Counted from the stretch's first letter, positions 38,468 to 63,285 are shown. The stretch: 64,000 nucleotides of DNA from Candidatus Sericytochromatia bacterium (GCA_036676985.1 JAKFBU010000030.1:7166-71165); one strand, 5' to 3'. The notes: generated from the letters alone by a model not told the origin. A program made the numbers and translations.

Positions 38468-38494
38468 CTCTAGCGCTCCAACCTCGATGCCCTG

Positions 38495-38740
38495 TTAGGC
38501 CGCCACCAGGGATGCCGCGAGGGCCTCGATGGTCGGGAAGTCCCACAGCAGGGTCGGCTCCAGTTCGCGGCCGAGCATGTCCTCGAGGTCCGCGGCCAGC
38601 GTGATGGCCATGACGGAATCCAGGCCGTAGTAGGAGAAGGGACGGCGCACGTCGATCTCCTGGTCGAGGTTCAGATCCTGGGTCAGTCTTTCTACGAGCC
38701 AGTCCTCGAGGGCTTGCCGGGTGACGGGGGCGGTGGACAT
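38495..38740 (-). CDS. Stand-alone acyl carrier protein
   Basis: 81 aa with the phosphopantetheine attachment motif YGLDSVMAITL. It lies between the FAAL and PKS genes, with 38-nt and 27-nt spacers. Confidence 0.88.
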   Translation of the reverse strand: MSTAPVTRQALEDWLVERLTQDLNLDQEIDVRRPFSYYGLDSVMAITLAADLEDMLGRELEPTLLWDFPTIEALAASLVAA

Positions 38741-38778
38741 GGACGATTACCTTTCTGGGGTCTAGGAGTGCGGCTCCG

Positions 38779-40575: not shown

Positions 40576-40602
40576 TCCTACCTCCCGGGGGCTCCAGCCC
40601 CC

Positions 40603-43600
40603 CTACTTGATGCTCAGCGCGGCCATCGCTCCACCCAGGAGCTGGGCGCAGGTTTCGATATGAGGGACGTCGGTCTCGCTCAAGGGGGTCTCCGTCCCCC
40701 GGCGGACGCAGTACAGCGCTCCCTTGAGGGAACCTTCCCCCTCGATCGGGCATGCGGCGACCCAGGGCGGCATGCCCGCGCTGATCTCGCCACTGCCCAG
40801 CACGCACTTACCCGAGCCGTAGGCCTCGGTCAGGACGGCATGGTCGAGGGAAATCGGCTGCGTCTCCTGCGGAGCGCGCGAGACGCTCAGCGAGATCTCG
40901 TCTCCGATCAGGATCGCGAGATCGTCGAGCCCCAGCTGGGCGGCCCATTCCGTCATCACCGACTTGATGAGGTCCGACGAGGAGCCGCAGGAATGGGCCT
41001 GGAACGTCCGCCGGAGCTCCTCGTCCAGGGTCACGCCCCGGACGGTCTGGCGGGAAGCGGTCTGGGACCACAGGGCCGAGACCGCCCCGATCAGGTCGTC
41101 GAATCGCTCGACGTCCTCCGGCTCGAAGGTGCCCTCCTGCTTGACGAGGCACAGGGCCCCGACGACCTGCCGATCGACCGCGACGGGCCCGATCAGCACC
41201 GACAGGAACGTGACGTCGAGCTGCGTTCCCTGGCTCTCGGAGGCCTCCTCCGGCAGCTCGACGAAGGTGGTGGCCTTGACCTCCGCGAGGGCCCGCGAGA
41301 CCCAGTCGGCGGGTATCCGCAAAGGAGCGCAGGGGCCCGAGGCGTTGCGGCTGGCCACGGGCGTGGCCTCCGGGGCGACCTCCAGGAGCGTGGCTTCGGA
41401 CGCCTGGAAGTCGGTCATGCCGATTTCCAGGGACGCTTGACGCCAATCGGCAGCCCCCTGGAGCCGCTGGCGCCAGCGAGGCGAGGCCGAGGACTCGGTA
41501 GCCCCCTTCTCGATGGTGCGTTCAAGGCCGTGCTGAAGCTGCTCCAGCTGAAGGGAGACCGGTTTCAACAGGTGGCGGTTCCGGAGCCCGTGGAAGATCG
41601 TTCCGGCGGCACGGAAGGAGGCCCTGGCCTCCTCCGGACGCTGGGTGGCCAGGTAGAGCTCTCCGAGATCCCGCTGGAGGAGTCCTTGCTCGATCAGGTT
41701 GTCCTGCTCGGGGCGGGTCACGATCGCCAGGGCCTGCTCGAACTCCTGGGCGGCCTGCGGATAGTCCCCTTCCTTCAGGGCCAGCTCCCCGAGGCGCCGG
41801 GAGGCGATCGCCGCGTGCAGGGGATTGCGGGCATCGCCTGCCTCGCTGAGCTCCCGGGCTTCGAGGAGGTGCTCGCGCGCCGCGGCGGAGTTCCCGCGGA
41901 CCGTTTCGAGGGCTCCTATGCCGATCAGGGCCTGGATCAGCACCAGCATCAGGTGCTGGTTCCGGGCGCGATCGCGCATGGCCGTGAGCGCGCGGTCCGC
42001 CTCCTCGAGCTGGCCGCGGTCGAGGGCGATGTAGCCGCCGAGGACCCGCAGGCTGAACTCGGCGAACGCATCTTGCTGGACATGGGGATACTGCAAGGCC
42101 TGCTGCACGATGCGGCCGGCCTCCTCCAGCTCGCCGCTCTGCCACAGCACGTAGGCCCGCAGGTAGAAGGCCCACTGATAGGTCGGAGCGTTGATGCGGC
42201 GGCAGGTCTGGCCCATGAGGTCGAGCAGTTGCTCGGTCTCCGCCCGACGCCCCGTGAAGGCGGTCCAGACGCCCTGGCGGGACCAGAAGAAGTTCTTGAA
42301 GGGATGCGCCTGGTAGCGTTCGGCGGCGGCGATCCCGGCCTCCAGCCGCTCGGGATCCGGGCGGATCCCCTGGTAGGCGACGGTCAGCTGGGAGCCGTTG
42401 ATCGCGAACCACGCGGCCACGAAGGCCGGATTCAGCTTGAGGTGCGACTCGTCGAGCAGCCGGGCGGCCTGGGGCCCAAGGCGCAAAACCTCGTCGTAGT
42501 GCCCCGCCGGCCCCAGGCACGTGGCCTCCGCCATGAGCATGCTGCCATCCATCGGCGAGCCGGCAAACATCTTCAAGCGCTTGGCTCGCGCCGCCTTCGC
42601 CATGCCCGTCATCGGGTGCCCGAAGGGGCCGTAGGCGGCACACAACAGGCCGTACGTCGTCACGATCGAGCGGAGCCAGTCCAGGGGCTTGGCGGGCGCG
42701 CAGCCACGAACCCCCTTGAGCCGCTTACGCAGGTGGGGTGTGATCCCGAAGGCCTGGGCCTTCCAGCGGGCCCGATCGAACGTGGGGCGGCGCCGGACCC
42801 GAGCCACCAGCCAGAGAATGGCGTGGGTCCGCTCGACATCCCCCAGGCTCTCCTGGAAGGCGATCAACTTCTCGAGGGCGTAGACCCCGATGGTGGGGAA
42901 CCCGTAGGCGCCGGCAAGACCCATGGCCCCCCAGAGGGCCGCCAGGCGCGGCGCCTTTCCGGGATAATCGAGGGTCAACAGGGTCTCTTCCGCCTGCTTC
43001 CAGTAGCGGATCGCCACCGCGAGCATCGCCCCGGCCCGAGCCTGATCGCCGGCCATGTGCAGGTACTCGTAGGCCTTGACCTTGTCGAGGCCGCGGCTGA
43101 AGTGGTGGGCCAGCTCGTTGGCAAAGGCGGTCCGCTGCTCCCCGTAGCCCTCCTCCAGGTACTCGGCGCACCGCTGGTGGAAGTGCCGGCGATCGTCCTC
43201 CGAGAGGTCGGCGTAGAGCGCCTCGCGCACCCGGTCATGGGCGAAGGAGACATGCGCCCCTTCGCTGACCAGGAACTGCCGCTCGGTCAGCTGGCTCAGG
43301 CCCTCGAAGAAGTCCTCTTCGCCCAGCCCGCTGATGGCCAGGAGCATGCTGCGTTCCTGGTTGCGCCCGATGACCGAGGCCACCTGCGCCAGGCGTCGCG
43401 CCACCTCGGACAGCTGGGAGAGGCGCCGGACGACGGTGGCCTCCACGCTGGTCGGCAGCTGCAGGCCCGCCGCATCCGACGGAAAGTGCCAGACCCCTTC
43501 CTTGAGGACGAGCAAGCCCTCTTCCACCATGTAGCGCAGGACTTCCTTCAGGAAGAAGGCGTTACCGGCCGTGGCCGCGTACAGGAAATCGCTGAACTCC

Positions 43601-45132
43601 GTGCTGATCACCATGTCGTTGAGCATGGCATTGAGCAGCTCCAGGGCCTGCTCCTGGGTGAACGGGCTCAATTGCAGGAGCTCGGTGGCTCCTTCTTCGA
43701 CGGTGTACCAGACCGGGCTGCTCGCGAGCGTCTCGTCGCTGCGCAGGGTCGCCAGGCAAAGGATGGCATGGCCTACTACCTGTCGGATGCAGCGATTGAA
43801 GAGCTCCAGGCTGCTCGGATCGCACCAGTGCACGTCGTCGAGGAAGAGCACGAGCGGGGTACGGGCGGCCACCGACTGCAGCCAGGCGATGACGGACTCG
43901 GAGAGGCGAGCCTTCTCGACATCCCCCGAGCTCGCCGGAGCCGGCTCGATGCCGCGGCCGGCGAGCTCCGGGAGGAGCTTGACCAGAGCCGGGCCGAAGC
44001 GCTGGAGCTCCTCGGGAATGGATAGGGAGATGAGCGGCCTCAGGGCCTGCGCTAGGGGCTCGTAGGGGGCCATACCGCCTTCCAGGCACTGCCCCCGCAG
44101 GACGGGCACGTCGTTGAGCGTGGCCTGGAGGACAAACTCGCTGACCAGGCGGGACTTTCCGACGCCCGCAGGTGCGCCGACGAACAGGGCGGATCCTTGC
44201 CCCGAGCGAATCGAGGTCAGCGCCTTGCCGAGCGTCTCCAGCTCGGCTTCCCGGCCGACCAGGACGCTGCTGTTGAGGTAGCTCTTCTTTTGGTCCAGGG
44301 TCTCGCGGGCGACCTGCAAGGAGGAGAGGTCGGCCAGATCGGCGATCACCTCGGCTGCGGAGCGGTAGCGGAGCTTCTGGTCCTTCTCCAGCAGCTTGAG
44401 GACGATGGCCTCGAGGCGGCGCGGCAAGTCCGGGCGCAGGCTGGAAGGCGGCGCGGGTGGCTCGGAGACGTGCGCCTTGAGGGTATCGACCAAGGAGCCG
44501 CGGAAGGGCAGCCGGCCGGTCAGCATCTGGTAGGCGAGGCAGCCGACGGAATAGAGATCGGAGGAGGCGTCGATCACCCCACCCTTGACGACCTCTGGGG
44601 GCAAATACCCGGGCGTGCCCGTGATCTTGCCGGTGGAGAGGATGCCCAGCCGGTCCATCAGGCCGAAGTCCATGAGCTTGAGGGTGCCGTCGGGCCGGAT
44701 CCGGATGTTCTCGGCCTTGATGTCGCGGTGCGCGAACAGGCGGGAATGGATGAAGCCGAGCGCCTGCAAGAGCTGGATCAGCCAGGGATAGAATTGCTCC
44801 AGCGGCAACGAGGTTCCGGAGATCAGGTCGGTGAGCTCCTGGCCCTCGACGACCTCCATGGTCAGGTACTGGCTGCACTCGTCCGCCTGGCCGTAGTCGA
44901 ACACCTTGAGGGTGTTCGGGTGCTGCAGCTTGGCCATCGCCCGGAACTCTTCCTTGAAGCGCAACTTGAGATCCGAGGTGATGGGGCCGTTGGACCGGAT
45001 CATCTTGAGGGCGAGCTCAGTGTCGCCCTCGAGCTGGTCGACCACGCGGTAGACCTCGCCCATTCCGCCTTTGCCCAGCAAGGCGAGCACTTGGTAGCGA
45101 TTGGCGATCACTTCGTTCTTCAAGTCGGTCAT
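40603..45132 (-). CDS. Multidomain Ser/Thr protein kinase: STK - P-loop NTPase (AAA_16/STAND-like) - TPR-like helical repeats - two C-terminal GAF-like domains
   Basis: About 1509 aa from ATG 45132 (the ORF extends to 45225). Kinase motifs GKGGMGEVYRV, ALKMI, HRDIKAENI, DFGL and GTPGYLPPE. NTPase motifs LVGREAELETL, Walker A GAPAGVGKS and Walker B LVLFLDDVHWCD. A long helical-repeat region follows, then GAF-like C-terminal segments. The stop is 27 nt upstream of the FAAL start on the same strand. Confidence 0.88.
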   Translation of the reverse strand: MTDLKNEVIANRYQVLALLGKGGMGEVYRVVDQLEGDTELALKMIRSNGPITSDLKLRFKEEFRAMAKLQHPNTLKVFDYGQADECSQYLTMEVVEGQELTDLISGTSLPLEQFYPWLIQLLQALGFIHSRLFAHRDIKAENIRIRPDGTLKLMDFGLMDRLGILSTGKITGTPGYLPPEVVKGGVIDASSDLYSVGCLAYQMLTGRLPFRGSLVDTLKAHVSEPPAPPSSLRPDLPRRLEAIVLKLLEKDQKLRYRSAAEVIADLADLSSLQVARETLDQKKSYLNSSVLVGREAELETLGKALTSIRSGQGSALFVGAPAGVGKSRLVSEFVLQATLNDVPVLRGQCLEGGMAPYEPLAQALRPLISLSIPEELQRFGPALVKLLPELAGRGIEPAPASSGDVEKARLSESVIAWLQSVAARTPLVLFLDDVHWCDPSSLELFNRCIRQVVGHAILCLATLRSDETLASSPVWYTVEEGATELLQLSPFTQEQALELLNAMLNDMVISTEFSDFLYAATAGNAFFLKEVLRYMVEEGLLVLKEGVWHFPSDAAGLQLPTSVEATVVRRLSQLSEVARRLAQVASVIGRNQERSMLLAISGLGEEDFFEGLSQLTERQFLVSEGAHVSFAHDRVREALYADLSEDDRRHFHQRCAEYLEEGYGEQRTAFANELAHHFSRGLDKVKAYEYLHMAGDQARAGAMLAVAIRYWKQAEETLLTLDYPGKAPRLAALWGAMGLAGAYGFPTIGVYALEKLIAFQESLGDVERTHAILWLVARVRRRPTFDRARWKAQAFGITPHLRKRLKGVRGCAPAKPLDWLRSIVTTYGLLCAAYGPFGHPMTGMAKAARAKRLKMFAGSPMDGSMLMAEATCLGPAGHYDEVLRLGPQAARLLDESHLKLNPAFVAAWFAINGSQLTVAYQGIRPDPERLEAGIAAAERYQAHPFKNFFWSRQGVWTAFTGRRAETEQLLDLMGQTCRRINAPTYQWAFYLRAYVLWQSGELEEAGRIVQQALQYPHVQQDAFAEFSLRVLGGYIALDRGQLEEADRALTAMRDRARNQHLMLVLIQALIGIGALETVRGNSAAAREHLLEARELSEAGDARNPLHAAIASRRLGELALKEGDYPQAAQEFEQALAIVTRPEQDNLIEQGLLQRDLGELYLATQRPEEARASFRAAGTIFHGLRNRHLLKPVSLQLEQLQHGLERTIEKGATESSASPRWRQRLQGAADWRQASLEIGMTDFQASEATLLEVAPEATPVASRNASGPCAPLRIPADWVSRALAEVKATTFVELPEEASESQGTQLDVTFLSVLIGPVAVDRQVVGALCLVKQEGTFEPEDVERFDDLIGAVSALWSQTASRQTVRGVTLDEELRRTFQAHSCGSSSDLIKSVMTEWAAQLGLDDLAILIGDEISLSVSRAPQETQPISLDHAVLTEAYGSGKCVLGSGEISAGMPPWVAACPIEGEGSLKGALYCVRRGTETPLSETDVPHIETCAQLLGGAMAALSIK

Positions 45133-45266
45133 GGCGTCGATCGTTCTCCTCATCCATCCGCGGAACGCGGCTGTACAGCGCTTGAATGCCTCCGCCGGCT
45201 CATCCGGTATACCCGAAACGAGCAAGGGTTATCCCATGATCCGCCAAGGACCATGGCCCCATCCGT

Positions 45267-45614
45267 TCACGAGCCGCCGCTCCAATGGAACTGCGCCCGC
45301 TGATGGCCACGGCCCGCGACGGCGAGGGCGCTCACGTAGCCCGGTATGGGCGGCAGGTCTTCGAGGCTCCAGGGCCAGGCCTCGGGCATGGCCACTAGAC
45401 GAGCGGGCTCATCGGCCGAGACGCTCACGTCGCAGGCCGCAAGCGACCCTGTCAGCCCGAGGCCGCTGGCTTTTAGCAGGGCCTCGAGATCCAGCCCCAC
45501 CGCGCGATCGCGGCTGAAGGCCATGAGGGCCCGATCGGCCGAATGGAAGAGGTTGAAATGGAGCCCCTCCACCTAGGGCTTTCCTTGGGGCCCCGAAAGG
45601 AACTGGGCCAACTA
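45267..45614 (-). pseudogene. Decayed Sfp-type 4'-phosphopantetheinyl transferase relic
   Basis: One reverse frame reads ...GAR*LAQFLSGPQGKP*VEGLHFNLFHSADRALMAFSRDRAVGLDLEALLKASGLGLTG...PGYVSALAV. The PPTase motifs GKP, FN.SHS and G.D.E are present. Two in-frame TAG stops interrupt them (45612-45614 and 45573-45575). The roughly 40 aa normally found between DxE and the (W..KE)xxxK.G.GL motif are missing, and there is no intact N-terminal half. Confidence 0.6.
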
Positions 45615-45969: not shown

Positions 45970-46275
45970 GTGTTCGCCATCGACTCCCAGGAAACGGAAG
46001 GGACCATGCTCCTCAAACTTTCGGGCGAGCTGGATACTTGGGCGTCCGGAGAGCTGGATGAATACCTGGCCAAGCTGGTCCCCACCCTCCGCAAGAACCT
46101 GGTCATGGACCTGTCGCAGCTCGCGTTCATGAACAGCTCGGGTCTGCGCTCCTTCTTGCGGCTGGACAAGCTGATGAAGGGCGAGGGGATGGCGCTGGTC
46201 ATCGAAGGCGCCTCGCGTTCGGTGTTCAAGGTCTTCCGCTACAGTGGCCTTGATGGCTACTTCACCTTGCGCTGA
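45970..46275 (+). CDS. STAS-domain protein (anti-sigma-factor antagonist type), copy 2
   Basis: LLKLSGELDT...DLSQLAFMNSSGLRSFLRL...VFRYSGLDGYF, with a conserved phosphorylatable Ser (NSSGL). GTG 45970 is preceded by an AAGGAGG RBS. The track ORF starts at 45934. Confidence 0.82.
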   Translation: MFAIDSQETEGTMLLKLSGELDTWASGELDEYLAKLVPTLRKNLVMDLSQLAFMNSSGLRSFLRLDKLMKGEGMALVIEGASRSVFKVFRYSGLDGYFTLR

Positions 46276-46303
46276 AGGGCGTTCACGTTAGAGGGCTCCA
46301 TCG

Positions 46304-47008
46304 ATGAGTGTCTTGCCTGAGAATGCCTCCGCGACCCGGCACGAGTTCGAGCTTGCCTGGCCCACCAACCTGGAGGCCTTCAGCCCCTACCGCCAGAAGG
46401 TGCGGGACTTCTTCGCCTCCCACCTGTACTGGGGAGAGGTGGCCGAGGACATGCTCCTCGGCCTCGACGAGGCCATGACCAATATCGTCCAGCATTCCTA
46501 CGCAGGCATGCCCGATCAGGTCGTCGCGCTGCGCCTGCGGCTGGAGGACTACTCCCCGCAGAACTATTCCGTCCTGACCATGGAGATGCTCGACCAGGGC
46601 TCCGGCGGCCAGGACTACGATCCGTCCCGACACCTCGAGCAGGCGCGCCAGGACCATGCGGCCCAGGAGCACCGGATGGGGTACGGGATCATCTTCCTCC
46701 ACCGCCTGATGGATCGCATTCATTACGAGAGCTCGGAGGCCGGCATGAACCGGTTGGTCCTGCAGAAGTGGTTCTCCAACGGACCGGTCGAGCCGCAATA
46801 TCGGGAGTCCCTGCTCAACGAGCTCCAGGTCCTGGAAGTCCTACCGCCGGTCGAGCCCGAGATGCTGCAGGCGGTGTGCGAGACTTACCCCGACCTCGAG
46901 GTCGGCGAGCAGCTGTTGATCCTGGGTTCCATCTTCGGTTGCGAGCAGGAGGCCATGCGCGCGGCCATCGTCCAGGCTCGCCTCAACCTGTCCGAGCGCG
47001 CCTCCTAG
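46304..47008 (+). CDS. RsbW/SpoIIAB-type anti-sigma-like serine kinase (HATPase_c_2) with ~80-aa C-terminal extension
   Basis: 234 aa. N-box LDEAMTNIVQHSY, G1 LDQGSGG, G2 GYGIIFLHRLMD. The residues after about aa 150 (NGPVEPQYRESLLNELQVLE...IVQARLNLSERAS) match no domain I recognise. Confidence 0.8.
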   Translation: MSVLPENASATRHEFELAWPTNLEAFSPYRQKVRDFFASHLYWGEVAEDMLLGLDEAMTNIVQHSYAGMPDQVVALRLRLEDYSPQNYSVLTMEMLDQGSGGQDYDPSRHLEQARQDHAAQEHRMGYGIIFLHRLMDRIHYESSEAGMNRLVLQKWFSNGPVEPQYRESLLNELQVLEVLPPVEPEMLQAVCETYPDLEVGEQLLILGSIFGCEQEAMRAAIVQARLNLSERAS

Positions 47009-47670
47009 CGGAGGTCAGGCGCATCAGGGTGCGCGAGCGCGGTGCGACGCTCCCTGCCCTGCAGCGCGAACACGTGGCGAATGATGCAGCTGCGCCGCCC
47101 ATCGGACATGGGGTCGAAGGCGATGCCAAGCGAGTACTCGGTGCCCCCACGGCTGAAATGGGGAACGCAGTGCCTGACGGTTCCCTCGAACTGCATCTCG
47201 CCGGCATCCGGGAGGTCGAGGGTCACCCGCACCTGCACCCCTGTCCGGACCGCCATCATGAAGACCACCGCGCAGCCCCCGCCCGACAGGTTCTTCAGGG
47301 GGGCCGCCGCGGGCGGCAGGAAGCGCCCCTCGGACTCGTGAAACACCTCCAGCTTGCAGGTGTCGAGGGTCGGGACGCGCACGTACTCGCGGCGCTGGAT
47401 GCGCTGGCACACGGTGGGCGAGGCGAGGCAGACGCGATCCGGGCTGACGGACCGGACCATGCACTGCAACTCGTAGAGGGCGTCGCGCTCCACCCGCACG
47501 CTCAGCTCCGCCGCCTTGACGGGGATCTTGACCCCGTGGCGCTGGGGGGGATCCACCTCGAAGCCTTCGGGGCTCACGGCCAGCACCTTCGCCTCGCACG
47601 GAACGAGGCGCTCCGAGACCGGCACCAGGAGGCAGACGGGTTGTTCCGCGAACAGCTTGACGCGTTGCAT
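47005..47670 (-). CDS. PilZ-domain c-di-GMP receptor, YcgR-like (PilZN-like + PilZ)
   Basis: 221 aa from ATG 47670, 5 nt after the phosphatase stop. PilZ motifs QRREYVR (RRxxxR) and NLSGGG (D/NxSxxG). Only the 3' 666 nt of ORF 47005..48354 is used. Confidence 0.82.
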   Translation of the reverse strand: MQRVKLFAEQPVCLLVPVSERLVPCEAKVLAVSPEGFEVDPPQRHGVKIPVKAAELSVRVERDALYELQCMVRSVSPDRVCLASPTVCQRIQRREYVRVPTLDTCKLEVFHESEGRFLPPAAAPLKNLSGGGCAVVFMMAVRTGVQVRVTLDLPDAGEMQFEGTVRHCVPHFSRGGTEYSLGIAFDPMSDGRRSCIIRHVFALQGRERRTALAHPDAPDLR

Positions 47671-47675
47671 GGAGG

Positions 47676-50111
47676 CTACCTGCAACCGAGCGCGAGGGAG
47701 GCATCGCGCATCACCACCAGGACCGTCATGTCGTCGAACGGCTGGGCCTCGCCCACAAAGGCCTCGACGCCCGCGAAGATCGCCGCGCGCAGCGCCTCCG
47801 CGTCCGCCCAGGGTCCCGCCGACACCAGCTCGATCAGCCGCTCCTCGCCGAATTCCTCGCCGGCGGCGTTGCGGGCCTCGGTGATGCCGTCGGTGTAGAG
47901 CACGATCGCCTCTCCCGGCGCGAGCTCGAGGTCCTGGCGCGCCAGCCGCCCGTTGAAGAGATCCGCGTCCAGGCCCAGCGCCACCCCCTGGGCCCACCTC
48001 GGCGTGACGCCGTCCGGGCGCACGTGCAGGGCGGGGGGATGACCGGCACATGCGAAGCTCGCACGGCCTGTGGCCGGATCCAGCGCGAGGAAGAAGGCCG
48101 TCACGTAGTTGCAGTCTCGGAGGTCCGAGCCGATCGTCGCGTTGACCTGCTTGAGGCCGGCGACCGGATCGGTGCAGCCGCCCAAGAGGGCCCGCACGGC
48201 CATGTGGGTCACGGCCATGTAGAGCGCCGCGGACACGTTCTTGCCCGAGACGTCCCCGATGAACAGGCCCAGGGGGCCCGCCGGGGCGTGAAGCACCTCG
48301 AACAGGTCCCCCCCGACCTCCATCGCGGGCAGGCAGCGGGCCGCCAGGGACCATCCGGGAATGGCCGGCAGCTCGGCGGGCAAGAGGCCCATCTGGATGT
48401 CCCGCGCGATGCGCAGCTCGGCGTCCATCTTCTCCTTCTGCTGGATGGCCGCCACGTAGAGGGCGTTCTGAACCGAGAGGGCGGTCTGGCCGGCGATGGC
48501 CACGAGCAGGTCCAGGTCCTGCGAGCCGAACGAGCGGGTCACGTAGTTGGAGCTCACGTAGAGCAGGCCGATCAGCTCATCCTTGACGATCATGGGCACG
48601 CACATGACGCTCTGGAGGTTGAGGGCCATGACGCTGGTGGTCTGGGTCGACGCATCGGCGCCCGTGTCCAGGATGCACAGGGGCTGGCGCGTCTCGAGGA
48701 CCTTGTTGGCAAAGGTATAACTGATCTCGAGCCCCTCCACGGGGTGGCCCTGGCGATTGAGGCCATAGCGACAGTGCAGGCCTTCTTCCGCCGGCAGGAT
48801 GACGAAGCCCGTATCCGCGTCGGTCAGCGACAGGGTGTGCTCCAGGAGCAACCGCAGGACCTGGTCGAGGTTCAGCGAGGAGGCGACCGCCTTGCCCAGC
48901 TCGTTGAGCGTGTCGAGGCGGCGGGCCTGCGAGGCTCCTTCCTGGCGCAGGGCCGCGATCCGGCGCAGCTCCAGCAACCACGAGACGAGCTCGCGGTAGG
49001 GGGCGGTTTGGTGCTCGACCTGAGCGGGATCGGCCGGGGCCTCCAGGCAGATCCCGAGCTTTGCGGTCTCGTCGCCCCGCTCGACGCGGATCGGCACGAT
49101 GACGCGCCCTTGATCGACGAGGGGAGCGCCCTGGGCGTGGGCCCGACCGAGCTGGATCGCATAAGGCTCCGCCTTCGCGCCGGTGGCGCAGAGGACGCGC
49201 CACGCTCCGTCTTCCTCGATCAGCAGGGCCCCGGAGGCGGCTCGGGTCGCGCCGAGCACCAAGCCGAGCAGATCCTGCTGCATCGCCTCGATCTCGTCGG
49301 CCGGGTTCGGGGCGTCCAGGAGAGCCTGCAAGAGGCCCCGCAGCCGCTCCGAGAGCCCGACCGCGGACAGGGACGTCTCCGGGGTGTCCGGGCCGGGGCT
49401 TGCGACCTGGAGGGCGACGGCGCTCGCGTTGTCCTGGCTCCCGTGCGCGATCGCCTCTTCCAGGGCGGCCCCCAGTTGTCGCTCCAGCTCCGCGGCGCCG
49501 CAGAGGTCGCGCAGCGAGTCGGTCCCCAGGGTCGAGTAGAAGCCGTCGGAGCACAGCAAGAGCATGTCGCCCGGCTCCAGCTCGAGCGTCTGGTGGGCGA
49601 TCTTGGGGGCCTCCTCCTTGCCCAGGTAGCGCAGGAGGGTCTTGCGCGCCGGATGGCCGAGCGCCTGCTCGGGCGTGAGCTGCTTGGTCTTCACGAGCTG
49701 GGTTGCGAGGGTATGGTCTTCAGTCAACTGCCGGACCTCGCCCCCCCGGATCAGGTAGGCACGAACCTCGCCCAGGTGGTAGAGGTCCAGGTCCTCGCCC
49801 TGCACGACGGCGACGGCGACGGTGGCCCCCATCCCCTTGCGCTCGGGGTGCTCGGCGATCTCCTGGCGGATCCGGGCGTTGGCTGCGAGGAGCGCGGGCT
49901 CGATCGCGGCCCCGGCCGCGAGGCTCGCCACCACCAGCTCGCTCGCGAGGTCGCCCCGGCCGGGGCCGCCGATCCCGTCTCCGACGGCGAAGATGCCGCG
50001 CTCCGGCGCGACCCAGACGAAATCCTCATTCAGCGCCCGGAGGCCGGCCGAGGTAACCGCGGCATGCGTCATGGGCGGAGAGATCCGCTGTGCCGTAACA
50101 GGAGCCTGCAT
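47676..50111 (-). CDS. Double phosphatase: N-terminal PP2C (PPM Ser/Thr phosphatase) - GAF - GAF - C-terminal SpoIIE/RsbU-type PP2C
   Basis: 811 aa.
- aa 14-236 (nt 49404-50072): LNEDF, GDGIGGPG, CSDGF, GSQDNAS.
- aa ~260-560: two GAF-like segments.
- aa 568-811 (nt 47679-48410): IARDIQMGLLP, VGGDLFEV, GDVSGKNVSAAL, AGHPPAL, LYTDGITEA, FDDMTVLVV. Confidence 0.88.
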   Translation of the reverse strand: MQAPVTAQRISPPMTHAAVTSAGLRALNEDFVWVAPERGIFAVGDGIGGPGRGDLASELVVASLAAGAAIEPALLAANARIRQEIAEHPERKGMGATVAVAVVQGEDLDLYHLGEVRAYLIRGGEVRQLTEDHTLATQLVKTKQLTPEQALGHPARKTLLRYLGKEEAPKIAHQTLELEPGDMLLLCSDGFYSTLGTDSLRDLCGAAELERQLGAALEEAIAHGSQDNASAVALQVASPGPDTPETSLSAVGLSERLRGLLQALLDAPNPADEIEAMQQDLLGLVLGATRAASGALLIEEDGAWRVLCATGAKAEPYAIQLGRAHAQGAPLVDQGRVIVPIRVERGDETAKLGICLEAPADPAQVEHQTAPYRELVSWLLELRRIAALRQEGASQARRLDTLNELGKAVASSLNLDQVLRLLLEHTLSLTDADTGFVILPAEEGLHCRYGLNRQGHPVEGLEISYTFANKVLETRQPLCILDTGADASTQTTSVMALNLQSVMCVPMIVKDELIGLLYVSSNYVTRSFGSQDLDLLVAIAGQTALSVQNALYVAAIQQKEKMDAELRIARDIQMGLLPAELPAIPGWSLAARCLPAMEVGGDLFEVLHAPAGPLGLFIGDVSGKNVSAALYMAVTHMAVRALLGGCTDPVAGLKQVNATIGSDLRDCNYVTAFFLALDPATGRASFACAGHPPALHVRPDGVTPRWAQGVALGLDADLFNGRLARQDLELAPGEAIVLYTDGITEARNAAGEEFGEERLIELVSAGPWADAEALRAAIFAGVEAFVGEAQPFDDMTVLVVMRDASLALGCR

Positions 50112-50289
50112 TGCGTCGCCTACCTTAACTGCGCCCCGAACAGCGGGGCGTGCCCGATCTGGATGCCCGCCCCGCGTCCACGTGATGCGCGGCGGAGGGG
50201 GGCGAACCTATTTTATAGCGAAACGCGGCGAGGGTATATAGCATGGGAGCATCGCCCTCGCGCCCGGTCGCCATGTCACGACAGCAGAA

Positions 50290-51990
50290 ATGGACGTTAT
50301 GACCCGCAACTCTCCCGCTCGGCCGTCCGGCCAGCCCCGCCCCTACGCCACGGCGTTCCAGGACCTGGCTGCGGCCTTCAGCGCCTCCACCCTGGCCGCG
50401 AACGGCAGCCGGGCCCTGTCGCCCCTCAAGCTGCCGGAGCGCCCATGGACGCCGCTCGACCTGGATACGGTCCTGCTGGATGTCCTGAGCAAGGTGGCCC
50501 AGATCGCCAAGGCCGATCGCGGCTTCATCTCCCTGGTCGACGAGTCCGGAGGGCCGATTTACTCATTGGTTCTCGGGGGCACGGGCGACGTCCATACGCT
50601 GTTCCCGTACTGCACCACCCTGCTGCAGGACGTGATGACCGAACGCAGGCCCCTCTGGATCGACGACGCCCAGCGTCACCCCCTCTTGCAGCACTCCGAC
50701 AGCGTCTTCGAGCTCGGGCTGAGAAACTTGATCGTCTTGCCGCTCCTGCTGTCGGAGGTGGTGGTGGGCGTCATCTACATGGACCGGAGCTCCCTCGAAG
50801 AGCGGCTCACCCCCTCGGATCACGCGATCCTCGAGAGCTTCGCGACCTACGCGGCCCTGGCCGTCCACAGCGTGTGGGCCAACAACGAGATGTCCGCCCG
50901 CGTTCGGAAGCTCCAGCTCATCAACGAGGTCTCCCTGGCGATCAGCGCCACCCGCAAGATCGAGCGCCTGCTCTCGTTGATTCTCCAGCACTGCTTGTCG
51001 CTCTCCGGCGGCGACCAGGGCTACATCCTGCTGGGCACCCACGGCGACCTCAAGTGTCTCGCCAGCCTGGACAGCTCCGGGCAGCCGGTGGAAACCCTCG
51101 CGATCAGCCGCAGCATCGTCTCGCGCTGCATCGACGAGCGACGCGCGATCTGCATCCTCGATACGGGCCTGGACGCGGCCAACCAGACGGCCAGCGTGAT
51201 GGCGCTCGACTTGCGATCGGTCATCTGCGTCCCATTGGTGGCGAGCCAGCAGCAGCTCGGTGCGCTGTACATCAGCAGCAACGCCATCACCAAGACCTTC
51301 ACGGCCCAGGATCAGTCCCTGCTGGAGGCGATCGCGAACCAGGCGGCCCTCACCATCCAGAACGCCCAGTTGCTCGACGAGCAGGAGCGCCAGATCCATG
51401 AACTGGAGCGGGCCCTCCAGCTGGTCCACGAGGCTCAGATCAAGGCCGTGACGGACGGATTGACGGGGCTCTTCAACCATCGCTTCTTCAAGGAGCAGTT
51501 GATCAACGCCCTGGCGGAGGCCGAGCGCTACGGCACGCCGCTCAGCGTCATCATGGTGGACCTGGACCACTTCAAGCGGATCAACGACACCTACGGCCAC
51601 CAGACGGGCGACGAGGTGCTCCGCCAAGCCAGCGCGTGCCTTCGCCAGACGGTCCGCGACAGCGACATCGTGGCGCGGTATGGCGGGGAGGAACTGGCCG
51701 TCTTGCTGCCCCATACCGACGCCGCCGGGGGCGCCTTGGCCGCCGAACGGATCCGCGAGGCCATTGCCGCCATGGCCTTGACGACGATCGCGGGCGAGCC
51801 CTTCACCGTCACGGCGAGCTTGGGCGTCGCCTCGCTGAGGGAGGGTTCGACCGCCGTCGAGCTGCTGGAACGTGCGGACAAGGCCCTCTACTCGGCCAAG
51901 CACGGCGGGCGCAATCAGGTGGGACTGGATGATCCGGCGGCCGCCACGAGCCTGAATCCCGCTCCGGAGAAACCTCCGAGCGGCTCCTAG
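50290..51990 (+). CDS. GAF-GAF-GGDEF diguanylate cyclase (GGEEL variant, RxxD I-site present)
   Basis: 566 aa with two GAF segments, then DGLTGLFNHRFF, VDLDHFKRINDTYGH, RDSD (51655-51666), YGGEEL (51679-51696) and ALYSAKHGGRNQV. Confidence 0.88.
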   Translation: MDVMTRNSPARPSGQPRPYATAFQDLAAAFSASTLAANGSRALSPLKLPERPWTPLDLDTVLLDVLSKVAQIAKADRGFISLVDESGGPIYSLVLGGTGDVHTLFPYCTTLLQDVMTERRPLWIDDAQRHPLLQHSDSVFELGLRNLIVLPLLLSEVVVGVIYMDRSSLEERLTPSDHAILESFATYAALAVHSVWANNEMSARVRKLQLINEVSLAISATRKIERLLSLILQHCLSLSGGDQGYILLGTHGDLKCLASLDSSGQPVETLAISRSIVSRCIDERRAICILDTGLDAANQTASVMALDLRSVICVPLVASQQQLGALYISSNAITKTFTAQDQSLLEAIANQAALTIQNAQLLDEQERQIHELERALQLVHEAQIKAVTDGLTGLFNHRFFKEQLINALAEAERYGTPLSVIMVDLDHFKRINDTYGHQTGDEVLRQASACLRQTVRDSDIVARYGGEELAVLLPHTDAAGGALAAERIREAIAAMALTTIAGEPFTVTASLGVASLREGSTAVELLERADKALYSAKHGGRNQVGLDDPAAATSLNPAPEKPPSGS

Positions 51991-52571
51991 ATGTCTTTTC
52001 GCTCGGCCCACTTGCGGCCTAGATCGGGCACCTGGTAGCGCTCCAGCCGATCCAGGAGGCGTCGCGGATCGGGCTCCAAGCACAGGAGGGCCTGGTGCGA
52101 CTCGGGGATGAAGCCCTCGGCCACACCCCGCTCCACCAGGGCCAGGAGGGGATCGTAGTAGCCCTCCACGTCCAGCAGGCCGACGGCCTTGCGGTGGATG
52201 CCCAGCTGCCCCCAGGTCACCACTTCGAAGAGCTCTTCGAACGTGCCGAAGCCCCCCGGCATGGCGATGAAGGCGTCCGACTTGGCCGCCATGAGGGCCT
52301 TGCGCTCGTGCATGGTGCCGACCACATGCAGCTCGGTCAGGCCGCGATGGGATAGCTCGCGCGACACCAGGGCCTCGGGGATGACGCCGATGACCTCGCC
52401 GCCCCGCGCGAGCACCTCGTCCGCGATGGCGCCCATCAGCCCGACGCTGGCCCCACCGTACACCAGGCCATAGCCCCGCTCCACAAGAGCGGCCCCCAGC
52501 TCCCGGGCGGCCTCCAGGTAGGCGTCGCGCGCCCCCGGCTTCGATCCACAAAACACGCACACGCGCTGCAT
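51987..52571 (-). CDS. LOG family protein (TIGR00730; cytokinin riboside 5'-monophosphate phosphoribohydrolase-like)
   Basis: 194 aa with VYGGASVGLMG and MPGGFGTFEELFE motifs. Confidence 0.9.
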   Translation of the reverse strand: MQRVCVFCGSKPGARDAYLEAARELGAALVERGYGLVYGGASVGLMGAIADEVLARGGEVIGVIPEALVSRELSHRGLTELHVVGTMHERKALMAAKSDAFIAMPGGFGTFEELFEVVTWGQLGIHRKAVGLLDVEGYYDPLLALVERGVAEGFIPESHQALLCLEPDPRRLLDRLERYQVPDLGRKWAERKDI

Positions 52572-52758: not shown

Positions 52759-53802
<1,044 letters not shown>

Positions 53803-53805
53803 GCC

Positions 53806-55008
53806 ATGGCGAGCAAGAAGAGCGTCGCGGACCTCGGTCCGCAAGATCTCAAGGACAAGCGGGTGCTGGTCCGGGCGGACTTCAACGTCCCCATGGACGA
53901 TGGCCGGATCACGGACGACACCCGCATCCGCGCCACCTTGCCCACCATCAAGTACCTGACGGACCGGGGCGCCAAGGTTCTCTTGACGTCCCACCTCGGC
54001 CGTCCCAAGGGCAAGACCCCCGAGCTGACGCTTCAGCCGGTGGCCAAGCGCCTGGGCGAGCTCCTGGGCCAGGACGTGCGCATGGCGCCCGACGCCATCG
54101 GCCCCGAGGTCCAGAAGCTCGCCGAGGACCTCAAGCCCGGAGATGTCCTCCTCCTCGAGAACATCCGCTTCTACCCGGAAGAGGAGAAGAACGACCCCGC
54201 GTTCGCCAAGCAGCTCGCCTCCGAGGCGGACCTCTACGTGAACGACGCCTTCGGCACCGCCCACCGGGCGCATGCCTCCACGGCCGGGGTCGCCGAGTAC
54301 CTGCCCGCGGTCGCGGGCCTCTTGCTCGACAAGGAGATCTCGGTGATGGGCAAGGCCCTCTCGAACCCCGAGCGGCCCTTCGTCGCCATCATCGGCGGCT
54401 CCAAGGTCTCGAGCAAGATCGGCGTCATCGAGAACCTGATCGGCAAGGTCGACACGCTCGTCATCGGCGGCGGGATGATCTTCACCTTCTTCAAGGCCCA
54501 GGGCCTCGAGGTCGGGCGATCGCTCGTCGAAGCGGACAAGCTGGAGCTCGCCCGCGAGCTCATGACCAAGGCCGCCGCCAGCGGGACCACGCTCCTGCTG
54601 CCCGTGGACGTCCTCGTCGCCCCCGACATCAAGGCCGCTAAGGCCAGTGCCGTGGTCGACGTCGACAAGATCCCGCCCACCGAGATGGGCGTGGACATCG
54701 GCCCCAAGTCCATCGAGGCCATCCGCCGGGCCCTCGGCGACTCCAAGACGATCGTCTGGAACGGTCCCATGGGCGTCTTCGAGAACCCGGCCTTCGCCGA
54801 GGGGACCCGGGCCGTGGCCCAGTTCGCGGCGGAGCGGACCGAGAAGGGCGCCACCACCATCGTGGGCGGCGGCGACTCGGTGGCGGCCATCGAGCAGATG
54901 GGCCTCGCCGACAGGTTCACCCACGTTTCGACCGGCGGCGGCGCCTCGCTCGAGTTCCTCGAAGGGCTCGAGCTCCCGGGCGTCGCGGCCCTGAGTGAGA
55001 AAGCATGA
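53806..55008 (+). CDS. pgk: Phosphoglycerate kinase
   Basis: 400 aa with [15 protein letters not shown] and GGGDS motifs. Confidence 0.95.
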
Positions 55009-55778
55009 GCAAGCGCAAGCCGGTCATCGCCGGCAACTGGAAGATGTTCAAGACGACCCAGGAAGCCCGCGACTTCGCGCGCGGGCTCTCCGAGGAGCTC
55101 AAGCGCACGACCGATCCCACGGTGGTGATCTGCCCGCCCTTCACCTCGCTGCACGTGCTCCGCGAGGAGCTCGGCAACACCGAGGTGCAGCTCGGCGCGC
55201 AGAACATGCACTGGATGGACGAGGGCGCCTACACCGGCGAGATCTCGCCCGTGATGCTCCGGGACGCGGGGGCCACCCACGTGATCATCGGGCACTCGGA
55301 GCGGCGCCAGTACTTCCACGAGACGGACGGCACGGTCAACCGCAAGGTCCAGGCCGCCCTCCAGTGGCAGCTCACGCCGATCATCTGCGTCGGTGAGACG
55401 CTCGAGGACCGCGAGGTCCAGCTCACGGACAACGTGATCATCGTCCAGACCCAGCGGGCGCTGTTGAACATCGCCCCGGAGCTGGTCGCGCAGTGCATGT
55501 TCGCGTACGAGCCCGTCTGGGCCATCGGCACGGGCAAGACCTGCGCGTCGGACGAGGCCAACCGGGTCTGCGGCATCATCCGCGAGACGGTGGGCAAGAT
55601 GGCCGGGCCCGAAGTGGCGGATGCCGTGCGCATCCTCTACGGCGGCTCGGTCAAGCCCGAGACGATCGCCGAGCAGATGGCCCAGCCGCACATCGACGGA
55701 GCCCTGGTCGGCGGCGCGAGCCTCGACCCCAAGAGCTTCGGGGCCATCGTCAACTTCCGTTCGGCCGCCGCACGCTAA
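55005..55778 (+). CDS. tpiA: Triose-phosphate isomerase
   Basis: 257 aa with [24 protein letters not shown] and YGGSV motifs. 4-nt overlap with pgk. Confidence 0.95.
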
Positions 55779-55944
55779 GTCCCCTTCGGGACTGACCTGG
55801 AGACCCTCCCTGGCTGCAGCCGCCCTTCCGGTGGCTTCCCCCCTTCTAGAGGGGGGGCCAGGGGGGGTCCTCCTCTTATCGTCGCACAGTTTTTGGCCCG
55901 CCCGCAGCTTGAAATAGGCTCACGGCGCACGTTAGGGTGAAATC

Positions 55945-57486
55945 ATGAAAAACGGACCGCTCGCACTCATCGTATTGGACGGCTGGGGCATCAACCCGCG
56001 GCCGGAAGGCAACGCGATCGCCATGGCCCAGAAGCCCAACTGGGACCGCTTCATGGCGACCTACCCGTGCGTGCCGATCCCCACGTCGGGCGAGTCGGTC
56101 GGCCTGCCGCCCGGGCAGATGGGCAACTCCGAGGTGGGCCACACCAACATGGGCGCGGGCCGGGTGGTCTACCAGGACCTCGTGCGCATCAACAAATCCA
56201 TCTACGACGGGGACTTCTTCGAGAACCCGGTGCTCGTCGAGGCCATGCAGGCCGCCAAGCGCAAGGGCGGTCGGGTCCACCTCATCGGGCTGGTCTCGGA
56301 CGGCGGCGTCCACAGCTCCCTGGAGCACCTCTACGCCCTCTTGGAGCTCGCGAGCCGCCAGAGCGTCCCCAGCATCTTCGTCCATGCCTTCATGGACGGC
56401 CGGGACACGCCGCCCACCTCGGGCGGGCGCTTCCTGTACGAGCTCGACAAGCGACTGGCCGCCACGAGCGGCGCCCAGCTCGCCACCATCGTCGGCCGCT
56501 ACTACGCCATGGACCGCGACAAGCGCTGGGACCGGGTGGAGCTCGCGTACCGCGCGATGGTGGACGGCGTGGCCGAGCACCATGCCCGTACGGGTTCCGA
56601 GGGCATGTCCGAAGCCTACGCGCGGGGCGAGACCGACGAGTTCATCAAGCCCATCCTCGTGGCCGAGGACGGCCGGATCCGCACGGGCGACACGGTGATC
56701 TTCTTCAACTTCCGGCCGGACCGGGCCCGCGAGATCACCCGGACGCTCATCGACCCCGCCTTCAACGAGTTCGAGCGCCCGAACCAGCCGGACGTGCACT
56801 TCGTGTGCATGACCCAGTACGACGAGAGCTTCAAGCTGCCGCTCGCCTTCGGCCCCCAGAGCCTGGACCGCATCCTGTCCCCGGTGCTGGCGGACGCCGG
56901 CGTGCGCCAGCTGCGCACGGCCGAGACCGAGAAGTACGCGCACGTGACCTTCTTCTTCAACGGCGGGGTCGAGAAGCCCTATCCCGGCGAGGAGCGGGTG
57001 CTGGTGCCGAGCCCCAAGGTGGCGACGTACGATCTGCAGCCGGAGATGAGCGCGTTCCAGGTGGCGGACGTGGCCGAGCAGTGGATCAAGGACGCCAAGG
57101 CGGACGTCATCATCATGAACCTGGCCAACGCGGACATGGTGGGCCACACGGGCAACATGGGCGCGACGGTCAAGGCCATCGAGGCCCTGGACATCTGTCT
57201 GGGCCGGATCATCGGGGCCATCGAGGCCAAGGGGGGCACGGCCCTCATCACGGCGGACCACGGCAACGCCGAGCAGATGTACGATCCGGCCTCCGGCGAG
57301 ATCGTCACCTCGCACACGCTGAACCCGGTGCCCCTCATCCTGGTGGGCGGCCAGGGCGCCAAGCTGCAGAGCGGCCTCTTGTCGGACATCGCGCCGACCA
57401 TGCTCGACCTTCTGGGCATCCCGCAGCCCAAGCAGATGACGGGGCACTCGCTCCTGGTCCGCGAGCCGTCCACGCTGATCAAGTGA
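55945..57486 (+). CDS. gpmI: 2,3-bisphosphoglycerate-independent phosphoglycerate mutase
   Basis: 513 aa with ILDGWG, GNSEVGHTNMGAGR, SDGGVHS, ADMVGHTG and TADHGNAE motifs. Confidence 0.95.
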   Translation: MKNGPLALIVLDGWGINPRPEGNAIAMAQKPNWDRFMATYPCVPIPTSGESVGLPPGQMGNSEVGHTNMGAGRVVYQDLVRINKSIYDGDFFENPVLVEAMQAAKRKGGRVHLIGLVSDGGVHSSLEHLYALLELASRQSVPSIFVHAFMDGRDTPPTSGGRFLYELDKRLAATSGAQLATIVGRYYAMDRDKRWDRVELAYRAMVDGVAEHHARTGSEGMSEAYARGETDEFIKPILVAEDGRIRTGDTVIFFNFRPDRAREITRTLIDPAFNEFERPNQPDVHFVCMTQYDESFKLPLAFGPQSLDRILSPVLADAGVRQLRTAETEKYAHVTFFFNGGVEKPYPGEERVLVPSPKVATYDLQPEMSAFQVADVAEQWIKDAKADVIIMNLANADMVGHTGNMGATVKAIEALDICLGRIIGAIEAKGGTALITADHGNAEQMYDPASGEIVTSHTLNPVPLILVGGQGAKLQSGLLSDIAPTMLDLLGIPQPKQMTGHSLLVREPSTLIK

Positions 57487-61539: not shown

Positions 61540-61541
61540 CG

Positions 61542-61883
61542 TTACCCCATCGTGCTCGACAGCTCGCTCTGGAAGATCTTGGTGATCTTGATGCCAAAGT
61601 TGGAGCCGATCACAACCACTTCGCCCTGGGCGACGATCTTGCCCGCGGCGATCACGTTGACGGGCTCGCCCGCGAGCTGGTCGAGCTCGATGACAGAGCC
61701 TTCCATCATCTGCATGACCTGCTTGAGCGGCAGGCTGGTGCGTCCCAGCTCCACCGAGACCTGCAGGCGGATGTCGCGCAGGAGGTCGAGGCTGCCTCGG
61801 ACGTTGGTGTCCCCGAAGCCTCCGCCCGTCAAGGGGCCGAACTTGACGGCGTTGTAGCCTTGGCGTTGGTCTTGCCAGTCCAT
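61542..61883 (-). CDS. fliN: Flagellar motor switch protein FliN
   Basis: 113 aa. SpoA domain IRLQVSVELGRTSLPLKQVMQMMEGSVIELDQLAGEPVNVIAAGKIVAQGEVVVIGSNFGIKITKI. Confidence 0.9.
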   Translation of the reverse strand: MDWQDQRQGYNAVKFGPLTGGGFGDTNVRGSLDLLRDIRLQVSVELGRTSLPLKQVMQMMEGSVIELDQLAGEPVNVIAAGKIVAQGEVVVIGSNFGIKITKIFQSELSSTMG

Positions 61884-61889
61884 GCGACC

Positions 61890-63275: not shown

Positions 63276-63285
63276 GGCTCCCCCC

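Follow-up and report, generated by a model that had tools for sequence, protein, structure and literature searches.

A sigma-less partner-switching cassette with a double PP2C phosphatase and predicted c-di-GMP genes in a Candidatus Sericytochromatia genome

Partner-switching modules are chiefly familiar as regulators of sigma factors. What does such a module control when no sigma factor is encoded beside it? The question is raised by a gene cassette at positions 45970-51990 of a 64-kb stretch of DNA from a Candidatus Sericytochromatia bacterium (GCA_036676985.1, JAKFBU010000030.1:7166-71165; the whole stretch is hereafter called the window). The cassette comprises exactly five genes, encoding a STAS protein, an RsbW/SpoIIAB-type kinase, a PilZ protein, a double phosphatase and a GGDEF cyclase, and its limits are gene ends (the STAS gene starts with the GTG at 45970, and the cyclase gene stops at 51990). 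Sigma-independent partner switches are established (PMC8256260), and one has been reported in a cyanobacterium (bioRxiv 10.64898/2026.04.08.717354). The general principle that a partner switch can control a cyclase is also established already, although few switches have been shown to steer enzymes of cyclic diguanylate (c-di-GMP) metabolism: STAS proteins control the cyclase HsbD (PMC5085249), and, as outlined in PMC8457831, BgrV controls the cyclase BgrR and SiaC controls SiaD by phosphorylation state. Our answer for the present locus, on which our own confidence is evenly divided, is that the cassette is a sigma-independent hub that joins a partner switch, a Hanks-type kinase and phosphatase pair and a c-di-GMP module, and that phosphorylation state sets the activity of the cyclase.

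Gene content and catalytic motifs

Open reading frames (ORFs) in the window, which has a GC content of ~68%, were filtered by third-position GC (GC3) to set genes apart from numerous spurious frames; every ORF with coding-type GC3 was scanned against Pfam, and the gaps between ORFs were inspected too. A first-pass annotation of the same DNA had placed five genes between 45970 and 51990 and described them as a STAS antagonist with a conserved phospho-serine, an RsbW/SpoIIAB-type kinase, a YcgR-like PilZ receptor, a double phosphatase of RsbU/SpoIIE type and a divergent GAF-GAF-GGDEF cyclase. Pfam hits, motifs and gene ends agree with that description, except that the YcgR-likeness of the PilZ protein holds only in part (see below). 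The annotation had overlooked a giant kinase upstream, a second STAS protein, a C-terminal domain on the RsbW-type kinase, the paralogy of two GAF domains and the variant active-site motif of the cyclase.

The largest gene of the five encodes the double phosphatase (47676-50072, minus strand; 798 aa from Met14, or 811 aa if translation starts at the ATG at 50111). It consists of a PstP/Stp1-like PP2C domain (residues 1-225), a variable linker, a GAF domain (~400-535) and an RsbU/SpoIIE-type PP2C domain (~550-790), with Pfam matches to PP2C_2 (28-195), GAF (414-546) and SpoIIE (612-802; E 1e-50). The N-terminal domain matches PstP in the PDB (E 6e-29), as well as tPphA, PppA and Stp1, and scores 150 bits with the NCBIfam Stp1 model, below the equivalog cut-off of 230; the C-terminal domain matches an RssB-type PP2C of P. 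aeruginosa. The metal-binding aspartates of both PP2C domains, including D589, D607, D728, D780 and D781, are invariant in five homologues. Proteins of this architecture are rare: only four other full-length clusters at 90% identity were present among 5.8e9 proteins, a scan of JGI metagenomes returned no close member of the family, and a genome scan recovered only L007 and L008 (loci described below) as family members, its other matches being generic PP2C proteins.

The cyclase gene (50290-51990, plus strand; 566 aa) is divergent from the phosphatase gene and encodes two GAF domains followed by a predicted diguanylate cyclase domain (GGDEF; Pfam E 1e-51, with Pfam and NCBIfam values of ~1e-52). 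Its active-site motif is GGEEL (465-469), an F-to-L change relative to GG(D/E)EF, and an I-site, RDSD (456-459), lies five residues ahead of it; the stretches DLDHFK, RIND (after GGEEL) and KHGGRN are also present. The phosphatase GAF domain and the second GAF domain of the cyclase are paralogues (43% identity over 161 residues, E 7e-42), which suggests that they share a ligand. The two genes are 178 nt apart (217 nt if the phosphatase starts at Met14), and the intergenic region (50112-50289) that separates the cyclase gene from the phosphatase/PilZ operon is the only AT-rich stretch (TATTTTATAG, GGTATATAG), for which reason promoters are presumed to lie within it. Scans of the intergenic regions for promoters, terminators and inverted repeats gave nothing above chance, and this one has no consensus sigma-70 promoter and only weak inverted repeats. 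At its other end the cyclase gene meets a converging gene of the LOG/TIGR00730 family (51987-52571, minus strand), such that the stop codons overlap by 4 nt.

STAS1, the product of the first gene (45970-46275, plus strand), is a single-domain protein of 101 residues of the anti-sigma-antagonist type (Pfam STAS, E 6e-16; NCBIfam ant_ant_sig, 66 bits, above the cut-off), and its GTG start codon has GGAGG ahead of it. Its N55-S56-S57-G-L lies over the D-S58-S-G-L of SpoIIAA, which identifies Ser56 (codon 46135-46137) as the phosphorylatable residue, and the protein also aligns with TM1442.

The kinase gene follows on the same strand (46304-47008; 234 aa) and encodes a GHKL domain (~1-155; Pfam HATPase_c_2, E 2e-16) with an N-box (DEAMTN, 55-60), a G1 box (DQGSGG, 97-102) and a G2 box (GYGI, 126-129), followed by a C-terminal domain (156-234). 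When an AlphaFold2 (AF2) model of the kinase, with a mean predicted local distance difference test (pLDDT) score of 73, was searched with Foldseek, SpoIIAB, RsbW and UsfX were the top matches (E 7e-8 to 1e-5), and only the GHKL part was matched. Against the NCBIfam equivalogs the kinase falls below the cut-offs (33 bits versus 135 for SpoIIAB; 31 versus 145 for RsbW), and a sequence search returned only two close relatives and one at 53% identity. The C-terminal domain (nt 46769-47005) comprises ~80 conserved residues in four confidently predicted helices (pLDDT 82-91) and has no Pfam match and no sequence relative in the PDB. An exhaustive profile search found it in 11 of 1.84e9 cluster representatives, eight of which are kinases of the same layout (214-272 aa, with the domain at the C terminus). 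Three proteins of 464-1715 aa (P0058, P0061 and P0063) contain 3-6 repeats that match its 'YPD(L/M)..G' core.

The PilZ gene (47005-47670, minus strand) converges on the kinase gene with a 4-nt overlap (47005-47008). This pair and the LOG/cyclase pair are both convergent and overlapping, which leaves no room for a terminator in either. The ATG of the PilZ gene stands 5 nt past the TAG of the phosphatase gene on the same strand, the spacer that the first-pass annotation had given. The product, a predicted c-di-GMP receptor of 221 residues, has an N-terminal domain of ~90 residues and a C-terminal PilZ domain (Pfam E 5e-14, residues 92-202) in which both c-di-GMP motifs, RRxxxR (RREYVR, 93-98) and NxSxxG (NLSGGG, 127-132), are intact and are invariant in three orthologues. 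A sequence search found only its own cluster and one 83% relative, and its only relative of solved structure is B. subtilis YpfA (5vx6; profile E 1.3e-7, residues 60-172 versus 63-180), which we take to be MotI, the c-di-GMP-dependent flagellar clutch of B. subtilis. It is plausible, as far as these alignments go, that the PilZ protein is YcgR/MotI-like.

Although the first-pass annotation was right to link a partner-switching set to c-di-GMP, the unit appears to be larger than five genes. Upstream of STAS1 lies a gene for a giant PknK-like Ser/Thr kinase (40603-45225, minus strand; 1540 aa) with Pfam matches to Pkinase, AAA_16 (STAND NTPase) and TPR and a weak match to GAF. Orthologues of this kinase are encoded beside the phosphatase family in L001, L005 (42% identity), L008 (46%) and L004 (36%, at a distance of 7.6 kb), a giant kinase is adjacent or fused to a SpoIIE phosphatase in six lineages, and, among the loci whose flanking DNA is long enough, L088 alone has neither the giant kinase nor such a fusion. 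On this pattern, the giant kinase belongs to the functional unit. A second single-domain STAS protein, STAS2 (31538-31864, plus strand; Pfam STAS_2, E 1.6e-10), retains the serine (TSVGL) and is 40% identical to STAS1, as judged by comparison with the STAS1 orthologues of L002 and L003, which are themselves 99% identical to STAS1. Its gene lies ~14 kb upstream of the cassette, at the far end of a cluster for a fatty acyl-AMP ligase (FAAL), an acyl carrier protein (ACP) and a polyketide synthase (PKS) that abuts the giant kinase gene. STAS2 probably belongs to the unit, of which we infer it to be a member, and it is a possible second substrate or output of the switch.

The FAAL-ACP-PKS genes (31898-40602, minus strand) lie directly downstream of the giant kinase gene on the same strand and encode the FAAL (38779-40602), the ACP (38495-38746) and a 2198-aa PKS with the order KS-AT-DH-KR-ACP-terminal reductase. 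A long-chain aldehyde or alcohol is the probable product, and a conspecific contig (L002) shows the same linkage. Between the giant kinase and STAS1 genes is a 101-aa ORF with coding-type GC3 (45267-45572, minus strand) whose FNLFHS...VGLDLE resembles Sfp-type phosphopantetheinyl transferases (PPTases); it has no Pfam match and looks truncated. A complete PPTase gene stands beside the cyclase gene in L004.

Related loci and the tie between phosphatase and cyclase

Related loci were collected by a search with the phosphatase and by the exhaustive profile search with the kinase C-terminal domain. The first-pass annotation had proposed gene-order conservation as a check on the cassette, and the comparison supports it in part: cassette parts are kept in relatives at 40-57% protein identity, but the PilZ gene is found in two lineages only. 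Because the neighbourhood is conserved in relatives, the clustering of these genes is more than chance, and the five genes are parts of a conserved, modular signalling system that has recurred during evolution.

Among the loci with an orthologous phosphatase, L001 and L007, from a metagenome-assembled genome (MAG) that is 83-93% identical, have the same gene order, the giant kinase included. L006 (phosphatase 49% identical) has the phosphatase gene followed by the PilZ gene, with a convergent kinase (53%, the C-terminal part included) and STAS protein (45%). The PilZ orthologue after the phosphatase is 40% identical in L006 (E 9e-46, with the motifs kept) and 83% identical in L001. In L004 (47%), the phosphatase has a divergently encoded orthologue of the cyclase as its neighbour, and a different STAS protein and a short kinase come next; this cyclase is 57% identical over 499 residues, keeps GGEEL and RxxD and has an extra HD-GYP domain. 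In L005 (41%), the gene divergent from the phosphatase gene is the giant kinase orthologue. Finally, in L008 (from a MAG labelled 'Cyanobacteria bacterium UBA8530') and P0008, a PP2C domain that shares 47-53% identity with the N-terminal domain of the window phosphatase is fused to an orthologous GAF-GAF-GGDEF cyclase (48-57%), and the L008 fusion adjoins the giant kinase. GGEEL is kept in the cyclase orthologues of L004 and P0008, the two in which the motif was read.

The cyclase and the phosphatase are thus linked in four lineages, as divergent neighbours in the window and L004 and as PP2C-cyclase fusions in L008 and P0008. As the fusions show, the strongest tie of the cyclase is to the N-terminal PstP-like PP2C domain and not to the STAS/kinase pair.

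The loci found through the kinase C-terminal domain show the other side of the system. In L006, L085, L086, L088 and L089 a member of this kinase family has a STAS1 orthologue of 44-60% identity encoded ahead of it, and in L090 one of 34%. A GGDEF gene directly follows the kinase gene in three of these loci: in L086/87, where a kinase-AAA16-TPR-GAF-SpoIIE fusion, an aminotransferase, STAS and the kinase are followed by a GGDEF gene that overlaps the kinase stop; in L089 (STAS, kinase, GGDEF, the last after a 12-nt gap); and in L090/91 (aminotransferase, STAS, kinase and an overlapping gene whose GGDEF domain lies at the end of the contig). L092 has a class III nucleotidyl cyclase gene divergent from a kinase-GAF-SpoIIE fusion, then aminotransferase, STAS and kinase genes, and L088 has an aminotransferase-STAS fusion, the kinase, a REC protein and a degenerate kinase paralogue. 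In all, 7 of 11 lineages have c-di-GMP genes alongside the system. We considered and rejected the idea that the C-terminal domain is specific to loci with a PilZ gene, the domain being found without PilZ in five further lineages; 215-aa and 214-aa genes beside the kinases of relatives were likewise rejected as PilZ candidates, one encoding a membrane protein and the other the degenerate kinase paralogue.

The fusions in L086 (870-6023) and L092 (1599-6371) are single proteins of 1590-1717 aa with Pkinase, AAA_16, TPR, GAF and SpoIIE domains, that is, a Hanks-type kinase and an RsbU-type phosphatase in one polypeptide; in L086 the kinase part is 32% identical to the window giant kinase and the GAF-SpoIIE part 39% identical to the window phosphatase. 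The L092 gene at 577-1362 (minus strand) encodes a class III adenylate/guanylate cyclase where the window and L004 have the GGDEF cyclase. The aminotransferase, of the alpha-oxoamine-synthase type (Aminotran_1_2), is encoded directly ahead of STAS in L086 (6047-7636), L090 (1-609) and L092 (6390-7637) and is fused to STAS in L088 (51-2057); a biosynthetic enzyme may therefore be a client of the switch in these loci. These arrangements amount to a natural experiment in which the same STAS/kinase pair occurs with PP2C-GAF-SpoIIE or Ser/Thr kinase-GAF-SpoIIE phosphatases, and in which the accompanying second-messenger part varies among a GGDEF cyclase, a PilZ protein and a class III cyclase.

Signal flow and competing explanations

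From the gene content, the motifs, the co-conservation and the fusions we infer the following signal flow. Ser56 of STAS1 would be phosphorylated by the RsbW-type kinase and dephosphorylated by the C-terminal, SpoIIE-type part of the double phosphatase. On a second branch, the same phosphatase would counteract the giant PknK-like kinase through its N-terminal PstP-like PP2C domain. One ligand may act on both phosphatase and cyclase through their paralogous GAF domains, and this ligand together with both phosphorylation branches would set the activity of the cyclase. The contact between switch and cyclase could be made by a STAS protein, phosphorylated or not, as in the HsbA-HsbD and BgrV-BgrR pairs, or by the C-terminal domain of the kinase. 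The GAF-GAF-GGDEF cyclase would make c-di-GMP, and the MotI/YcgR-like PilZ protein would read it and most probably act on, and probably brake, the flagellar motor.

Several observations weigh against this scheme. GGEEL is a variant active-site motif, and cyclase activity is a prediction. The fusions join the cyclase to the PP2C/Hanks branch and not directly to STAS or the kinase. The c-di-GMP arm is not present in L005, L085, L088 or L092 (L085 and L088 being short contigs), and in L004 and L005 the STAS/kinase pair beside the orthologous phosphatase is non-orthologous to STAS1 and the window kinase and has no C-terminal domain, from which it follows that modules shuffle. The N-terminal domain of the PilZ protein has no Pfam PilZN match, even at E 10, the YcgR-likeness proposed at first is borne out only in part, and the AF2 model of this protein, with a pLDDT of 34, is unusable for a fold search. 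Flagellar genes, placed ~8 kb away by the first-pass annotation, do begin 7.3 kb downstream, but this proximity is not seen in relatives. Finally, the claim that the cassette has no sigma target stands for the neighbourhood: we found no sigma factor in the 64-kb window or in ~10 related loci, a result that covers the window and these loci.

A different assignment of the kinase's client gives the explanation that fares best among the alternatives, one that we nevertheless consider unlikely. The client would be the double phosphatase itself or, in relatives, the kinase-SpoIIE fusion; STAS1 would sequester the kinase as RsbS does, the freed kinase would activate the SpoIIE domain via its C-terminal domain, the phosphatase would then act on, for example, STAS2, and c-di-GMP would lie downstream by way of the PP2C-cyclase link. 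The B. subtilis RsbR/S/T-RsbU system is a precedent for such an arrangement, and a SpoIIE-type phosphatase is indeed present in every C-terminal-domain-kinase locus with enough flanking DNA, a STAS2 paralogue with its serine is encoded in the window, and the two PP2C domains could act in RsbU-like and RsbX-like manner. However, the NCBIfam and PDB matches of the kinase, all of them weak, are to SpoIIAB and RsbW and not to RsbT, the phosphatase has a catalytic PP2C domain and a GAF domain in place of the N-terminal kinase-binding domain of RsbU, and STAS2 is encoded 14 kb away.

It is also conceivable, although rather improbable, that c-di-GMP is an input to the switch instead of its product, in which case the kinase would have the PilZ protein as its client, or the PilZ protein would regulate the kinase or the phosphatase, the c-di-GMP-bound form would shift the switch, and the output would be a STAS-controlled enzyme or protein encoded elsewhere. 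The translational coupling of the PilZ gene to the phosphatase gene, and the overlap of its 3' end with the kinase gene both in the window and in L006, would fit this arrangement, as would the fact that, within the phosphatase-orthologue set, long kinases occur with PilZ and short kinases (L004 and L005) without it. Set against this are the C-terminal-domain kinases that occur without any PilZ gene in L086, L088, L089, L090 and L092, and the literature searched, in which no link or interaction of PilZ proteins with STAS or RsbW proteins turned up.

We regard as about equally improbable, or slightly more so, the classical arrangement in which an alternative sigma factor, encoded beyond the window, is bound and inhibited by the kinase and the c-di-GMP genes are merely co-regulated neighbours or part of the regulon. 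In fold and motifs the kinase matches SpoIIAB, RsbW and UsfX, all three of them anti-sigma factors, and only 64 kb of the genome is in view, but no sigma factor is encoded beside any of the ~10 related loci, the kinase lies far below the SpoIIAB and RsbW equivalog cut-offs, and several partner switches without a sigma factor are established (PMC8256260, PMC5085249).

The least probable of the explanations, and one to which we give little credence, makes a lipid or polyketide enzyme under STAS control (the aminotransferase in relatives, and FAAL-ACP-PKS, flanked by STAS2, in the window) the primary output and c-di-GMP an accessory: it draws on the aminotransferase gene ahead of STAS in L086, L090 and L092 and fused to it in L088, on the position of the window PKS cluster between STAS2 and the giant kinase together with the PPTase-like remnant, on the PPTase that adjoins the cyclase in L004 and on a report that an Anabaena STAS protein regulates a biosynthetic enzyme directly (bioRxiv 10.64898/2026.04.08.717354), but the window cassette, L004, L005 and L006 have no aminotransferase, the PKS linkage is seen only within the same species (L002), and the PP2C-cyclase fusions are left unexplained.

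The hub in which phosphorylation state sets cyclase activity remains, therefore, the reading that we prefer. A bolder extension of it, which we put forward tentatively and with clearly less confidence, is that the C-terminal-domain kinases form a new class of partner-switching kinases whose client is a second-messenger enzyme or receptor, such as a GGDEF cyclase or a PilZ protein, and not a sigma factor, that the double phosphatase merges Hanks-type signalling into the switch, and that the resulting three-tier phospho-relay gates c-di-GMP by one GAF ligand. Should the signal flow set out above hold, Hanks-type kinases, partner switches and c-di-GMP would be merged into one decision circuit, and both the new kinase-appended domain and the rare double phosphatase would acquire a function. 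As the organism is uncultured, experimental work would have to proceed by heterologous expression.

Genomic surroundings and comparison with known systems

The flagellar genes downstream of the cassette include genes for FliR and FliQ, a FliO-FliP ORF and FliN-like genes. The ORF at 60352-61590 (minus strand) contains FliO (residues 88-148) and FliP (215-407) in one uninterrupted frame, an apparent fusion, and it is preceded on that strand by three consecutive genes with a FliN C-terminal domain (61542-63999). Assignment of these export genes to an injectisome was rejected because FliO and FliP are present. Between the cassette and the flagellar genes lies a glycolytic cluster (gap, pgk and tpiA, then gpmI; 52783-57486, plus strand), and L007, a close relative, is the only one to retain the gap-LOG-cyclase order. 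Rfam searches returned no RNA element and no c-di-GMP riboswitch, and PADLOC assigned no defence-system membership, its matches being limited to generic kinase domains. The nearest genomes are MAGs labelled 'Stenomitos sp.' (L007) and 'Cyanobacteria bacterium UBA8530' (L008); with its GC content of 68%, its flagellar genes and no photosynthesis genes, the window points to a cyanobacterial lineage without photosynthesis, or else to a bin that is mislabelled or contaminated.

The cassette is a member of none of the HptB-HsbR-HsbA-HsbD, BgrSTUWV-BgrR or SiaABCD systems, and appears to work like them. The first of these, from P. aeruginosa, likewise has a STAS protein cycled by an RsbW-type kinase and a PP2C phosphatase, control of a neighbouring cyclase, a setting in flagellar motility and no dedicated sigma factor as sole output (PMC5085249). 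HsbR, however, is a single REC-PP2C-kinase protein fed by the Hpt protein HptB (PMC5085249), whereas the kinase and phosphatase of the cassette are separate proteins and there is no REC or Hpt domain in it; the locus is an analogue, as proposed earlier, and not a homologue of this pathway. The cassette also differs in its GAF and Hanks-type kinase inputs, its second PP2C domain and the PilZ gene within it, and no FlgM was found. In BgrSTUWV-BgrR of S. meliloti and SiaABCD of P. aeruginosa, a switch protein directly modulates a cyclase and the genes are clustered with that of the cyclase, as summarized in PMC8457831. SiaC is a DUF1987 protein, whereas the switch protein of the cassette is a STAS protein, and the cassette falls below the NCBIfam cut-offs for both SiaA (22 bits versus 700) and SiaD (171 versus 290). 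A giant Ser/Thr kinase and a double phosphatase are missing from both the Bgr and the Sia system, as are a PilZ gene and the C-terminal domain of the kinase.

With the Bacillus SpoIIAA-SpoIIAB-SpoIIE and RsbV-RsbW-RsbU systems the cassette shares the STAS fold and phospho-serine motif, the GHKL fold and a SpoIIE-type PP2C domain, and it differs from them in having no adjacent sigma factor, an extra 80-residue kinase domain and another phosphatase architecture. The PilZ protein resembles MotI (YpfA/DgrA, 5vx6) and E. coli YcgR in its C-terminal PilZ domain and both c-di-GMP motifs and MotI in its length (221 versus 216 aa); the alignment with MotI keeps the same register and extends into the N-terminal domain, and the window genome is flagellated. 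The similarity is weak, however, and no PilZN match is found; nor is MotI or YcgR known to be embedded in a partner-switch operon. The giant kinase shares the Pkinase-AAA_16-MalT-like TPR architecture of the mycobacterial PknK STAND kinases, and the N-terminal domain of the phosphatase is closest to PstP, but in the cassette the PP2C domain is fused to a GAF domain and a second, RsbU-type PP2C domain, and in relatives PP2C-cyclase or kinase-GAF-SpoIIE fusions occur. Compared with all of these systems, the distinctive features of the cassette are its double PP2C phosphatase, the C-terminal domain of its kinase, its embedded PilZ gene and its conserved coupling to a giant STAND-type kinase.

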